This document shows, in pieces, positions 50,810 to 60,300 of a DNA stretch of 64,000 nt. Made by a program: the position numbers and the translations under genes. Positions within the stretch are counted from its first letter, which is position 1, and every line of letters starts with the position of its first letter. The notes under the pieces are model-generated. The model had not been told where the DNA came from. It was given only the letters and a program-made list of their open reading frames with translations, and did not search any database. Source of the DNA: Shigella phage ESh24; the sequence record ON528734. One strand, 5' to 3'.

Positions 50810-51067
50810 ATGAAAACTTTCAAAGAGTTTGCTATAAAAACTACTATTACTGAATCTTCCCACGGTATGGAAGTAAAACTTGGAATGGCTTTAGCTGAAG
50901 CTGAGCGTCTTTTCTCTCGTATTAAAGAACTTGCTGCTGCAGTCGATCCTTCGTCTTTTAAAGGAGACCAAACGAAAGTTAAAGCACTTTTAGCATTATG
51001 CTCCGATGCGGGAGAAATCGCTAAAAATGGTTCTAAGATGAAGAAACGATTAGAAGATTTAAAATAA
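50810..51067 (+). CDS. internal-protein-like small protein with divergent capsid-targeting leader (ipI position)
   Basis: 85 aa; N-terminus MKTFKEFAIKTTITE resembles the IP capsid-targeting sequence; located after 57B where T4 has ipI. Confidence 0.6.
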   Translation: MKTFKEFAIKTTITESSHGMEVKLGMALAEAERLFSRIKELAAAVDPSSFKGDQTKVKALLALCSDAGEIAKNGSKMKKRLEDLK

Positions 51068-51079
51068 TTTCACAAAGTT

Positions 51080-51109
51080 ATTTACATAGGGTTTTAGTTG
51101 TGATACTAT
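51080..51109 (+). promoter_or_regulatory. early-type promoter, second copy of the 50729-50808 element
   Basis: ATTTAC at 51080-51085, TACTAT at 51104-51109; flanks are near-identical to the first copy. Confidence 0.4.
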
Positions 51110-51138
51110 TACCCTATCAACTACTGAGGAGAATAAAA

Positions 51139-51324
51139 ATGAAACGTTGTGAATTAATTCGAAATGTTGCTATTGCAATTTCTGCTTCCGCTTTTAGTTT
51201 TTCAATGTTTGTTGGATTTATATGCGGATTATTGACTACAGCAGAAAATGTTTTTTCACTTGTAGTAGCATTTTTAATTGGTTTAATCGCTATTGTTATG
51301 GATAAAATTTCTAAAGGTGAATAA
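51139..51324 (+). CDS. small hydrophobic (membrane) protein
   Basis: Start set at MKRCELIRN (GAGGAG RBS); two hydrophobic helices. Confidence 0.55.
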   Translation: MKRCELIRNVAIAISASAFSFSMFVGFICGLLTTAENVFSLVVAFLIGLIAIVMDKISKGE

Positions 51325-51729
51325 ATGAATATTAACGAATATTATGTTTATGCTGGAGATTATGCAAATCCTTCTCATTTTGAAGGTAATTTAATACCTG
51401 ATAGAGTTTTTAATACTCCTTTTGAAGCGTGGAGTTGGGTTGAAAGTAAAAATGGATTTTCTTATCGTTATGTTGAAGTAACTGATTGGAAAGGAACTAA
51501 ATATCCTAAAGAGCATTATTATGTAGACCCATCTAAAGTAAATTTTCTTTTGTTCGCAGGCGATAATTACTATCCTTGCGGTGGATATGATGATTTGATT
51601 GCGTATGCTGAAACAGAAGATGAATTACGCCAAATTATTGAAGACAATAAATCAAAACGATTTGGCGATAGTTTTGACTGGTGGCAAATCGTAAATGCCC
51701 ATACACATACTATTGTTGATAAAGGTTAA
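51325..51729 (+). CDS. hypothetical protein (134 aa)
   Basis: ORF directly abutting the upstream ORF. Confidence 0.6.
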   Translation: MNINEYYVYAGDYANPSHFEGNLIPDRVFNTPFEAWSWVESKNGFSYRYVEVTDWKGTKYPKEHYYVDPSKVNFLLFAGDNYYPCGGYDDLIAYAETEDELRQIIEDNKSKRFGDSFDWWQIVNAHTHTIVDKG

Positions 51730-51731
51730 TA

Positions 51732-52019
51732 ATGATTCTTTATGCGAAAGTATCATCCATTGAAAATGGATATAAATATGATCAAGAAGCAGCTAAAGCC
51801 TTGATTGATGATTATGGCATTTTAACATGTTTTGAAGTTGAAAAGGTTTACATTGATCGTTCATCTTCGCAAGTTAAATTAGTAAATGAAGACCGTAAAT
51901 TTAATACAGTAAATTTTGATTTCTTTATTGAAACAGAAAAAGGTCCTCTTGAATATGATATTTTCAAGAATCCTTTGGGTCTTGAATGCATCGTAAGTAT
52001 GTATCATCATAAATGGTAA
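51732..52019 (+). CDS. hypothetical protein (95 aa)
   Basis: ORF 2 nt after the previous stop. Confidence 0.6.
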   Translation: MILYAKVSSIENGYKYDQEAAKALIDDYGILTCFEVEKVYIDRSSSQVKLVNEDRKFNTVNFDFFIETEKGPLEYDIFKNPLGLECIVSMYHHKW

Positions 52020-52116
52020 ATATGCTTTAAGAATTATTTGTTATTATTAACTCATACCGCACTGATTAATACCCTCTATCATCAAGGGTTCTTGTTTGAG
52101 AGCCTTTGTTAATAAT

Positions 52117-52189
52117 TGGGAATTAGCCAAGTTGGTAAGGCATAGCACTTTGACTGCTAGATGCAAAGGTTCGAGTCCTTTATTCCCAG
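52117..52189 (+). tRNA. tRNA-Gln (anticodon UUG)
   Basis: Acceptor TGGGAAT/ATTCCCA, anticodon loop CTTTGAC, T-arm GGTTCGAGTCC. Confidence 0.8.
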
Positions 52190-52190
52190 C

Positions 52191-52277
52191 GCGAGAATGG
52201 TCAAATTGGTAAAGGCACAGCACTTAAAATGCTGCGGAATGATTTCCTTGTGGGTTCGAGTCCCACTTCTCGCACCA
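52191..52277 (+). tRNA. tRNA-Leu (anticodon UAA), type II long variable arm
   Basis: Acceptor GCGAGAA/TTCTCGC, loop CTTAAAA, encoded CCA. Confidence 0.8.
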
Positions 52278-57747: not shown

Positions 57748-57775
57748 GCCATCTATTATAACAGATGATAAATTC

Positions 57776-58096
57776 GTGTGTATTCATAATGGTCGCGCTA
57801 AGTTAACGAACGCTGATTGGTTCACAGATAAAATTATGATTCTGTGGTATATTATTAGTCTTCCTGTGACATCATTCGTATTTTACTTTTTTATAAAAAA
57901 TCCAATGGGCAGAATAGGAGATTGGATTCTTTTAACCATACTTGTTAATATTTTTACAGCAGCAATATTATCTGGGATATGGTACACGTTCATTGAAATG
58001 CCATGGCGGCTACGCAGACAACAAAAGATTTTTGATGAAAAGAAATATACTCAAAATTTAAATAACTTTATCACTGAATGCAGGAAATTACAATGA
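57776..58096 (+). CDS. small membrane protein (paralog)
   Basis: 106 aa; hydrophobic helices; C-terminus ...FITECRKLQ. Confidence 0.55.
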   Translation: MCIHNGRAKLTNADWFTDKIMILWYIISLPVTSFVFYFFIKNPMGRIGDWILLTILVNIFTAAILSGIWYTFIEMPWRLRRQQKIFDEKKYTQNLNNFITECRKLQ

Positions 58097-58533
58097 AAAC
58101 ATTATCAGCTGGTATTATCTTTATGACAGAAGATAAAGATTTATTTATGGGACGAGTTACTGGTTCTCGTAAACCTGGAATGATGGCACATCGCTGGGAT
58201 ATTCCAAAGGGGCGTGTAGAAAGTTCTGATTTGAATGCACTGGAAGCTGCAAAAAGAGAATGCTTAGAAGAGACTGGTTTTGGCAATTATAATCCAGACT
58301 TTCTAGAAGACCTAGGTGTATTTAAATATTCTAGTAATAAAGACTTACAGTTATTTTATTATACGATTCCAGTAGAGCATGAGATGTTCAGAAATTGCCA
58401 TTGCGAGTCTTACTTTGAAAATAAAGATGGCGTTATGATTCCAGAAATGGACGCTTTTGCTCTTATTCCTCGTACTCAATGGCAATATGTGATGGGTCCT
58501 TCACTTTACCGAATAATGAACAACCTCTTTTAA
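58078..58533 (+). CDS. nudE: Nudix hydrolase NudE
   Basis: Nudix box [24 protein letters not shown]; 151 aa, directly upstream of e. Alternative start at 58093. Confidence 0.85.
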
Positions 58534-58570
58534 TTTTATAAATACCTTCTATAAATACTTAGGAGGTATT

Positions 58571-59065
58571 ATGAATATATTTGAAATGTTACGTATAGAT
58601 GAAGGTCTTAGACTTAAAATCTATAAAGATACAGAAGGCTATTACACTATTGGCATTGGTCATTTGCTTACTAAAAGTCCATCACTAAGTGTTGCTAAAT
58701 CTGAATTAGATAAAGCTATTGGGCGTAATTGCAATGGTGTAATTACAAAAGATGAGGCTGAAAAACTCTTTAATCAGGATGTTGATGCTGCTGTTCGTGG
58801 AATTCTGAGAAATGCTAAATTAAAACCGGTTTATGATTCTCTTGATGCGGTTCGTCGTTGTGCATTGATTAATATGGTTTTCCAAATGGGAGAAACTGGC
58901 GTAGCTGGATTCACTAACTCTTTGCGTATGCTTCAACAAAAACGCTGGGATGAAGCAGCAGTTAACTTAGCTAAAAGTAGATGGTATAATCAAACACCTA
59001 ACCGCGCAAAACGAGTCATTGCAACGTTTAGAACTGGCACTTGGGACGCGTATAAAAATCTATAA
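58571..59065 (+). CDS. e: endolysin, T4 lysozyme (glycoside hydrolase family 24)
   Basis: 164 aa, [38 protein letters not shown]...; essentially the T4 lysozyme sequence, with catalytic Glu11/Asp20/Thr26 context present. Confidence 0.97.
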
Positions 59066-59069
59066 AGTT

Positions 59070-59099
59070 GTTTACTTTCTCCTAAAACTGTGATAGTAT
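59070..59099 (+). promoter_or_regulatory. early-type promoter (GTTTAC, 18 bp spacer, TAGTAT) inside a 7 bp inverted repeat
   Basis: ACTGTGA/TCACAGT flank the -10 hexamer. Confidence 0.45.
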
Positions 59100-59136
59100 A
59101 TTCACAGTTACTAATTAAAATATTTAAAGGAAACAC

Positions 59137-59718
59137 ATGAAAACGTATAAAGAATTTATCGCTGAAGCTTCTGTGGAAAAGGCCAAAGGCATTAATAAAG
59201 ATGAGTGGACCTACCGTTCGGGAAACGGCTTTGACCCTAAAACGGCTCCTATTGAACGGTACTTAGCTACAAAGGCTTCCGACTTTAAAGCCTTCGCTTG
59301 GGAAGGACTTCGTTGGCGTACCGATTTAAATATTGAAGTTGATGGACTTAAATTTGGCCATATTCAGGATGTTGTTGCTAGTAACTTAGACGCAGCTTTT
59401 GTTAAAGCCGACGGTGACCTTCGTCGCTGGAATTTAAAACTGTTCTCTAAACAGAAAGGCCCGGTGTTTGTGCCTAAAGCTGGTAAATGGGTTATTGATA
59501 ATAAATTAGCTAAGGCTGTCAACTACGCTGGTCTTGAATTCGCCAAGCACAAATCATCATGGAGAAGTCTTGATGCAATGGCCTTCCGTAAAGAATTCGC
59601 CGAGGTTATGACTAAAGGCGGCTTTAAGGCAGAACTAGATACCTCTAAAGGTACGTTTAAAGACGCTAATGTTCAGTACGCTTACGCCGTTGCTAATGCA
59701 GCCCGCGGTAATTCTTAA
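59137..59718 (+). CDS. ipIII: internal protein III-like (capsid-targeted)
   Basis: 193 aa; N-terminus MKTYKEFIAEA; position immediately after e. Confidence 0.75.
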   Translation: MKTYKEFIAEASVEKAKGINKDEWTYRSGNGFDPKTAPIERYLATKASDFKAFAWEGLRWRTDLNIEVDGLKFGHIQDVVASNLDAAFVKADGDLRRWNLKLFSKQKGPVFVPKAGKWVIDNKLAKAVNYAGLEFAKHKSSWRSLDAMAFRKEFAEVMTKGGFKAELDTSKGTFKDANVQYAYAVANAARGNS

Positions 59719-59826
59719 TAAAGCCGAGTTCGAACCTGGTAATTGATAAATACAGAAACGGGCAATTCATGTGTGTGAATTGCCTCAAACTTAAAGAATA
59801 AAACTATTTACATTTAAAGGAAACAC

Positions 59827-60300
59827 ATGAAAACATATCAAGAATTTATTACTGAAGCAGCTATTAATTCTCAAATTATTGCTGAATCTTTTACTGATCT
59901 TTTGAAATTTAAAAAAGGACAGAAAATCACTGCTGTATTGGATGATGGTACAGAAGTTGAGATGGATGTGCAAGGATATAATTATGCAGTAGATGGAAAA
60001 CTGTATAATAAATCTCATGCTAAATTTGATTCATTTGACGACTTTGTTAATACAGTTGAAGATGAAAAAACTCGTCGATCCATTGCAACTGGTGATGCTA
60101 AGGTTCTTATGGCACATGGTCATGAACGCATTCGCGCTAAACAGAATAAAATGGGTGAAGATAATTTTGCATTAGTCGGTTATCAATCTGGTAAACAAAC
60201 CTATGGTTATCAGCGTACTGCTACCATGTATAACAAAAATGGTAAAATTGCCTTTGTAAATAGTAAAGGTTCTATTCAGTACGTTAAATCATTCAAATAA
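59827..60300 (+). CDS. internal-protein-like protein (157 aa) at the ipII position
   Basis: N-terminus MKTYQEFITEA; shares the 15 nt upstream sequence ATTTAAAGGAAACAC with the 59137 gene. Confidence 0.7.
   Translation: MKTYQEFITEAAINSQIIAESFTDLLKFKKGQKITAVLDDGTEVEMDVQGYNYAVDGKLYNKSHAKFDSFDDFVNTVEDEKTRRSIATGDAKVLMAHGHERIRAKQNKMGEDNFALVGYQSGKQTYGYQRTATMYNKNGKIAFVNSKGSIQYVKSFK

Follow-up and report, generated by a model that had tools for sequence, protein, structure and literature searches.

Leader-bearing internal protein genes of the T4-like Shigella phage ESh24, including a candidate new family between rnaC and e.8

The four leader-bearing genes

The stretch of Shigella phage ESh24 considered here (64,000 nucleotides of record ON528734, referred to below as the window) carries four plus-strand genes with the N-terminal leader that targets internal proteins (IPs) of T-even phages to the capsid. 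The open reading frames (ORFs) start at 50810, 54306, 59137 and 59827 and encode proteins of 85, 187, 193 and 157 residues with the N-termini MKTFKEFAIK, MKTYAEFLTE, MKTYKEFIAE and MKTYQEFITE, respectively. The window is from a T4-like phage, a Tequatrovirus; a region of ~9.7 kb matches ~1,200 phage records, the best of which are Shigella phage Shfl2, ECML-134 and RB14 at ~95% identity. On the plus strand the gene order is that of T4 reversed: gene 1, 57A, 57B, an ip gene, tRNA.4-.2, the tRNA cluster, rnaD/rnaC, e.8-e.2, nudE, e, further ip genes and vs.8. We consider it probable that all four genes encode internal proteins that are packaged in the head and injected. The 187-residue gene is the new one among them.

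A six-frame scan of the window with the pattern M[KR][TS][YFW]x[ED][FYW] returned these four ORFs and no others, and the same four were found when the leader pattern was relaxed and GTG and TTG starts were allowed. The form MKT[YF]xEF occurs at four of the 436 Met positions that have at least 60 open codons, compared with 0.00027 expected and none in 20 shuffles. The initial annotation, which assigned a shared MKT(Y/F)xEF leader to these ORFs, was exact in its coordinates. Its description of the bodies as unrelated is borne out at the level of pairwise sequence, since local alignment of every pair of leaderless mature bodies gave a z score of 0.6 or less against shuffled sequences. A 15 nt sequence had also been reported upstream of the last two genes. 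This 15-mer, ATTTAAAGGAAACAC, occurs in the window only at 59122 and 59812 and is really part of an identical run of 23 nt (ATTTAAAGGAAACACATGAAAAC) that extends through ATGAAAAC into the coding sequence. The two copies (59122..59144 and 59812..59834, plus strand, as are all features below unless stated otherwise) supply the ribosome-binding sites and first codons of ipIII and ip4. An abstract of 1994 reportedly described a 'nearly identical translation signal' among IP genes, a feature that the 23 nt block resembles.

The 85-residue gene (50810..51067) is assigned by its sequence as Ip5 and not IPI. Its leader is longer and of the IPI type, MKTFKEF...ITE/S (in full MKTFKEFAIKTTITE/S, with the slash marking the predicted cut), and cleavage by gp21 is predicted after Glu15 to leave a mature body with an isoelectric point (pI) of 9.2. 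Upstream, at 50750..50789, a T4-type early promoter (GTTTACA ... TACTAT) and an overlapping stem-loop (TGATGAGGTA / TACCTCATCA) form the same element as is found before T4 ipI. A T4-type early promoter (GTTTACT ... TAGTAT) with a stem-loop (AACTGTGA / TCACAGTT) also precedes ipIII, at 59070..59109, as in T4. The ipIII gene (59137..59718; leader MKTYKEFIAE/A; PHROG 5341) encodes a protein with 92% full-length identity to T4 IPIII. This T4 orthologue has been characterised as an inhibitor of the GmrSD of ECOR17, and the most likely role of IpIII is likewise to inhibit a type IV restriction enzyme of the GmrSD type.

The 157-residue gene (59827..60300) lies within an IP locus, yet without an early promoter. 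None was found between ipIII and ip4 (59745..59784), in contrast to the region upstream of T4 ipII; the interval contains GATAAATA (59745-59752), which matches the late-promoter box at seven of eight positions, and a hairpin, GGGCAATTCA...TGAATTGCC (59760-59784). By sequence the gene is ip4. Its product is 100% identical to RB14 Ip4, belongs to Pfam DUF7412 and to a PHROG described as 'internal virion protein', and is present in 470 phage records, Klebsiella and Salmonella phages among them. The body adopts an alpha/beta fold, for which no structural neighbour was informative. In addition to the leader MKTYQEFITE/A there is an alternative cut site, IAE/S, after Glu20. The leader is conserved in the family alignment, and Glu20 is invariant in 14 Ip4 homologues with I/M/L-x before it, which suggests that Ip4 has a second gp21 site, as in IPI, and that the mature protein may start at Ser21 instead of Ala11.

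The 187-residue gene (54306..54869; leader MKTYAEFLTE/A) is unannotated and belongs to the RB14ncORF136c / bas37_0243 family. The initial annotation could place neither this protein nor the one of 157 residues; the former is indeed unplaced, and the latter is Ip4. Rather than all four being close to characterised IPs, three are named IPs and one of these has a characterised function. What is new is the 187-residue gene as a candidate IP family; Ip5, IpIII and Ip4 had already been named and the biology of the leader is mostly known.

Predicted packaging and cleavage

Capsid-targeting leaders on the internal proteins of T-even phages have been known since 1994 (Repoila et al., 1994, as described in citing papers). 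To read the leaders in the window as sequences of this type placed on unrelated cargo, as the initial annotation did, is right at its core and is already the standard view. In T4 the first ten residues of IPIII suffice for the packaging of foreign proteins, and experiments on IPIII have linked residues 4 and 7 to targeting and residues 8 and 10 to processing, as summarized in a review. The gp21 protease cleaves after Glu in the T4 IPs. The T4 proteins are basic, bind DNA, are present at ~300 copies each per head and are ejected along with the DNA.

The sequences in the window agree with these assignments. Tyr or Phe occupies position 4 and Phe position 7 in all four proteins. The 187-residue protein carries Tyr4, Phe7, Leu8 and Glu10, IpIII and Ip4 carry Tyr4, Phe7, Ile8 and Glu10, and Ip5 carries Phe4 and Phe7 with ITE further downstream, as in T4 IPI. 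Taken purely as a sequence motif, (L/I)-x-E is present as LTE at residues 8-10 of the 187-residue protein, IAE in IpIII, ITE together with IAE at 18-20 in Ip4, and ITE at 13-15 in Ip5. The four mature bodies have pI values of 9.1-9.6, net charges of +3 to +9 and 12-15% Lys, in line with T4 IPI, IPII and IPIII. The machinery thought to bind and cut the leaders is also encoded in the window, where a head module on the upstream minus strand includes the major capsid protein, the gp22 scaffold (19542-20351; Pfam T4_CASP, 3e-90), the gp21 prohead protease (20382-21020; Pfam Peptidase_S77, 1.4e-111) and the portal.

From these features we infer that Ip4, Ip5 and the 187-residue protein are packaged and cleaved. 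A capsid-targeting sequence (CTS) of 10-15 residues would dock each protein on the gp22 scaffolding core during prohead assembly, and gp21 would then cut after the Glu of (L/I)-x-E, which is Glu10 in the 187-residue protein, IpIII and Ip4 and Glu15 in Ip5. The basic mature protein would remain with the DNA, be ejected into the next host and act there before phage gene expression. For T4 IPIII and IPI this course from docking to ejection has been established; it would apply to the proteins of the window by extension.

The 187-residue family and the rnaC-e.8 site

Homology to T4 stops at 54233 and restarts at 54878, and on the T4 side the two end-points have 28 nt in common, at the one rnaC terminator of that phage. 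The intervening cassette of 672 bp is bracketed by GGGCTTTTT at 54222 and 54894. On the left, the GGGCTTTTT end (54222-54230) of the rnaC terminator AGCCCCGACCGAAAGGTTGGGGCTTTTT (54203..54230) forms the junction; on the right, the junction is the GGGCTTTTT at 54894-54902, within the intrinsic terminator of the cassette (CCCTATCTAAATGATAGGGCTTTTT, 54878..54902), where T4 homology resumes. The gene is preceded by a late promoter, AATAAATA (54264..54271), 34 nt upstream of the ATG, and by the Shine-Dalgarno sequence AAGGA at 54295. The promoter is of the A(-13) variant, the commonest variant among the listed T4 late promoters (nine of 50), occurs only twice on the plus strand of the window and is conserved as a motif upstream of bas37_0243. 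The gene has recombined into the rnaC terminator as a self-contained late-promoter/terminator cassette, and a late promoter fits a prohead component, which requires late expression. On the timing of IP expression a T4 transcriptome and proteome paper contained nothing. ARAGORN reports a 'tRNA-Phe (aaa)' at 54057-54153, with no support from Rfam; the position is that of T4 rnaC (species 1 RNA), which is tRNA-like.

The mature protein is predicted to start at Ala11 (AAKLPSEADLTK) following a cut after Glu10, and its body (pI 9.5, net charge +8, 14.7% Lys) falls inside the range of T4 IPI-III. The gene is present in 164 records and is labelled 'hypothetical' or 'phage protein' in all 40 that were sampled evenly from these, and its PHROG carries no function. 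A word-indexed search of 5.8 billion clustered proteins returned only relatives of at least 88% identity together with two chimeras, and IMG/VR held close relatives only. An exhaustive HMMER search of 1.84 billion representative proteins found one distant homologue, P0013 (204 residues, 31% identical), the leader of which, MITFNEFLNE/S, keeps Phe4, Phe7, Leu8 and Glu10 despite the divergence of the body. The gene next to that of P0013, on a T4-like metagenomic contig (L004, 2092-2526), encodes a protein of 144 residues that is ADP-ribosyltransferase-like (ART-PolyVal/DUF3990) and bears the leader MITFKQFLNE/S; we regard it as a candidate injected enzyme.

The AlphaFold model of the 187-residue protein is all-helical, with an N-terminal domain, a disordered linker (approximately residues 75-98) and, at the C-terminus, a long hairpin of helices. 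A fold search with this model gave no match at E <= 0.001. Searches of Pfam, NCBIfam, PADLOC and PDB sequences returned nothing meaningful for this protein, Ip5 or IpIII; a match to cytochrome b562 (E = 0.004, below the cut-off) reflects a helical bundle and nothing more. We also considered and set aside several possible relationships. An FH(D)L(P)DKDR patch common to the 187-residue protein and T4 IPII suggested remote homology, but the leaderless alignment is at background (z = 0.0); Ip4 and IPII give a borderline z of 3.4, from which we claim no homology. Paralogy of the MKSY family described below with the 187-residue family or with P0013 was likewise not retained (z of 2.1 or less).

The occupancy of the rnaC-e.8 site differs between phages. 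The site is empty in T4, whereas the window, RB14 and Shfl2 have the 187-residue gene alone, Bas37 and two IMG/VR genomes have it together with a gene for a 157-residue protein with the leader MKSYTQFLNE/A, phiE142 has it together with a 154-residue variant, and Bas43 has the 157-residue gene alone. The second family, with leader MKSY(T/A)QFLNE/A and ~157 residues (L006, 11718-12191; L005, 5447-5920; L007 and L008, at 3402; L009, at 3411), is present in 512 phage records, and all 25 of those sampled are 'hypothetical' or carry no annotation. In the Bas37 member of this family a perfect TATAAATA is present, and a copy of the rnaC terminator lies on either side of the gene. L009 has a hybrid leader, MKSYAEFLTE. 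Further leader-bearing ORFs with other bodies (MKTYSEFLSE..., MKTYKEFIAEATKADK..., MKTFNEFISE...) occur in L008 at 8073 (93 residues) and in L009 at 361 and 734, and we take such ORFs in relatives as a sign of a large uncatalogued IP repertoire. Versions of the 187-residue protein that are chimeric or truncated (P0010, P0011, P0012, P0014 and RB69 ORF148c/149c) include one with a new N-terminus, a nudE fusion, an e.8-like fusion and the split gene of RB69; they indicate that recombination and decay are frequent at this locus.

The gap between rnaC and e.8 is thus a credible third site of IP polymorphism, of the cassette type. Credible too, on the sequence comparisons, is that the 187-residue gene represents a new IP family, although this family and the MKSY family may figure among variants that have already been catalogued. 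Polymorphic IP cassettes are well known in T-even phages: Ip4-Ip10 were described by Repoila et al. (1994) and 'more than 30 variants' were reported later (Comeau, 2007, as quoted in a citing paper). By near-identity Ip5 and Ip4 belong with these. The 187-residue gene differs in that it occupies neither described locus, in that a late promoter and terminator replace the early promoter and stem-loop, and in that the IP label appears in none of the 40 sampled records. There is also a likeness to the PeSL/moron cassettes (Arbiol et al., 2010), since the gene forms a promoter-gene-terminator unit, is bracketed by the short repeat GGGCTTTTT at a stem-loop and is found in some phages but missing from others closely related to them; unlike those cassettes, its promoter is late and not early or sigma-70-like, and recombination has taken place at an intrinsic terminator and not at a PeSL.

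With respect to T4 itself, the four proteins share the mapped leader residues, the (L/I)xE site and the basic mature body of IPI, IPII and IPIII, and the neighbourhoods are shared (the 57B-tRNA and e-vs.8 regions), with IpIII as the 92% orthologue. Unlike T4, the window has no ipI or ipII; tblastn found no counterpart in it of T4 denV, ipI, ipII or e.7. The bodies of Ip5, Ip4 and the 187-residue protein have no detectable similarity to IPI-III (z of 3.4 or less).

Two features of the surrounding region may be recorded. The vs.8 homologue directly after the Ip4 gene is split (60342-60996), with residues 1-35 of T4 vs.8 matched at 60342-60446 and residues 26-219 at 60406-60993 in a different frame, which points to a frameshift, to a pseudogene or to an error in the sequence. 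Between tRNA-Gly and tRNA-Ser, at 52361-53011, there is an ORF of 216 residues resembling a GIY-YIG homing endonuclease. Of T4 SegB only residues 19-117 match it (83%), and segB has another place within the T4 tRNA cluster, which makes this look like a different seg insertion.

Proposed anti-defence function and alternative explanations

Our interest in function stems from what is known of the T-even IPs. Each of Ip1, Ip2 and Ip3 acts against a GmrSD of its own: IPI blocks that of strain CT596, and Ip2 and Ip3 block those of ECOR21 and ECOR17, respectively, with no cross-protection. IpIII is required on ECOR17, and the leaderless mature protein complements when expressed in the host. More recently Bas37_0260, a leader-bearing protein of 77 residues encoded at the ipI locus, was found by HIDEN-SEQ to block McrBC (bioRxiv 10.1101/2025.11.20.689424), and therefore uncharacterised leader-bearing ORFs can be anti-restriction factors. 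For the four IPs with known targets, the enzyme inhibited is thus always a type IV restriction enzyme (a GmrSD variant in three cases and McrBC in the fourth), and for this reason each uncharacterised leader-bearing gene is an anti-defence candidate. By analogy, Ip5, Ip4 and the 187-residue protein most likely act in a specific manner against other defences in the first line of the host. Like the window proteins, Bas37_0260 combines the leader with a body unrelated to IPI-III; it is not among the four leader genes of the window and shows no similarity to the bodies of Ip4 and Ip5 (z of 2.0 or less). The delivery of head-loaded proteins with the DNA is a concept shared with Alt and with the Dar proteins of phage P1. 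An Alt-like ADP-ribosyltransferase is encoded at 635-2692, but Alt is a much larger protein with a different, shorter propeptide, and the P1 Dar proteins are unrelated and follow another packaging pathway.

For Ip5 there is a weak hint from experiment. In the published supplementary tables of a transposon screen, mutants of its Bas37 orthologue bas37_0261 (L006, 15864-16121) were 4-fold fewer on E. coli CFT073 (log2 fold change -2.09, adjusted p < 1e-5) and unaffected on CFE299, a host-specific effect as expected of an anti-defence IP. The upstream gene 57B showed a weaker effect (-1.56), and the authors of the preprint did not discuss the depletion. An injected anti-defence role, which the initial annotation proposed for the proteins of 187 and 157 residues, is backed by homology for IpIII only, has this hint in its favour for Ip5 and applies to Ip4 and the 187-residue protein by analogy.

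Several observations count against our interpretation. We located no virion proteomics or N-terminal sequencing in the literature for Ip4, Ip5 or the 187-residue protein, nor did literature searches turn up these ORFs, and no known anti-defence protein resembles their bodies in sequence or fold. The model of the 187-residue protein is of low confidence (pLDDT, the predicted local distance difference test, is 63). IP genes are said to be confined to two loci (57B-tRNA.4 and next to e), and the 187-residue gene, situated between rnaC and e.8, is in neither and has no early promoter with stem-loop of the kind found before ip5 and ipIII; IP locus and element together are present for ip5 and ipIII and describe known members rather than a mechanism. 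IPIII also affects head assembly, so that anti-defence need not be its sole role. Finally, the orthologue of the 187-residue gene was classed as essential in the transposon screen discussed below.

The role of IPIII in assembly raises the alternative that some or all of the proteins act mainly inside the head, in scaffold or core assembly or in neutralizing the charge of the packaged DNA. In IPIII mutants heads form about half as fast as normal and the burst is smaller, each basic IP is present at ~300 copies per head with lysines that touch DNA phosphates, and all four bodies in the window are basic. Nevertheless, laboratory strains support the growth of T4 from which all three IPs are missing, and wherever a function has been assigned to an IP it is anti-restriction. 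The genes also vary to an extreme degree in presence and absence and the folds are unrelated, which arms races with particular hosts would explain better than a role in structure, and we regard a mainly structural function as unlikely.

The atypical position of the 187-residue gene and the lack of the upstream element of the canonical IP loci, together with the absence of a proteomic report, could alternatively mean that its product is not packaged. The leader would then be a by-product of recombination at the 5' end of an IP gene, a process that is known to use IP leaders and the DNA before them as substrates and of which the hybrid leader of L009 may be a case, and the protein would act in the cytoplasm late in the producing cell. 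Against this, all four mapped leader positions, including the cleavage Glu, are kept in the 31%-identical P0013, the body is basic and Lys-rich as in IPs, the late promoter fits incorporation into the prohead, and in T4 the ten-residue CTS alone packages foreign proteins. We consider this explanation improbable and favour packaging of the 187-residue protein.

The screen referred to above used a HIDEN-SEQ transposon library of Bas37 (KarlGJung, MZ501089), described in a 2025 preprint (bioRxiv 10.1101/2025.11.20.689424). In it bas37_0243 (L006, 11029-11592) was labelled 'Essential' with one of 48 TA sites hit, among neighbours that were all at least 85% saturated; the authors made no comment on this call, which is unexpected for what we propose to be an accessory anti-defence gene. 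The same screen labels known non-essential late genes as essential (hoc, inh, uvsW and wac of T4; Hoc, Inh and the helicase of Bas37). The HIDEN-SEQ marker lacks a terminator, and selection for it works by way of early anti-CRISPR action (bioRxiv 10.1101/2025.11.20.689424), and bas37_0243 lies downstream of two copies of the rnaC terminator with a late promoter only. The call is probably an artefact, in that an insertion may express the anti-CRISPR marker too late, and in that case it provides incidental support for late-only transcription.

That the gene is truly indispensable where carried would explain the near absence of insertions; it could, for instance, counter something that even E. 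coli K-12 contains or that the phage itself encodes, or else truncated leader-bearing fragments could poison head assembly. This is hard to reconcile with the lack of the gene in T4 and many relatives, its splitting in two in RB69 and the mislabelling of known non-essential late genes, and we think it quite unlikely. A bolder proposal is that rnaC-e.8 is an unnoticed third IP locus with at least two widespread families, those of 187 (164 records) and ~157 residues (MKSY, 512 records), and that the 187-residue protein is a packaged factor that cannot be lost even on K-12, perhaps because it counters a core K-12 function or is built into head assembly; taken as a whole, this is a speculative possibility to which we give little weight.

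Our preferred interpretation, that the four genes encode injected internal proteins, adds three anti-defence candidates from this window, namely Ip4, Ip5 and the 187-residue protein. Since the 187-residue family and its neighbour are widespread yet recorded as 'hypothetical', leader-based scans of the rnaC-e.8 interval would enlarge the catalogue of IPs and would amend the idea that only two loci hold IP genes. Such information would be of practical use in host-range prediction and in the engineering of therapeutic T4-like phages.

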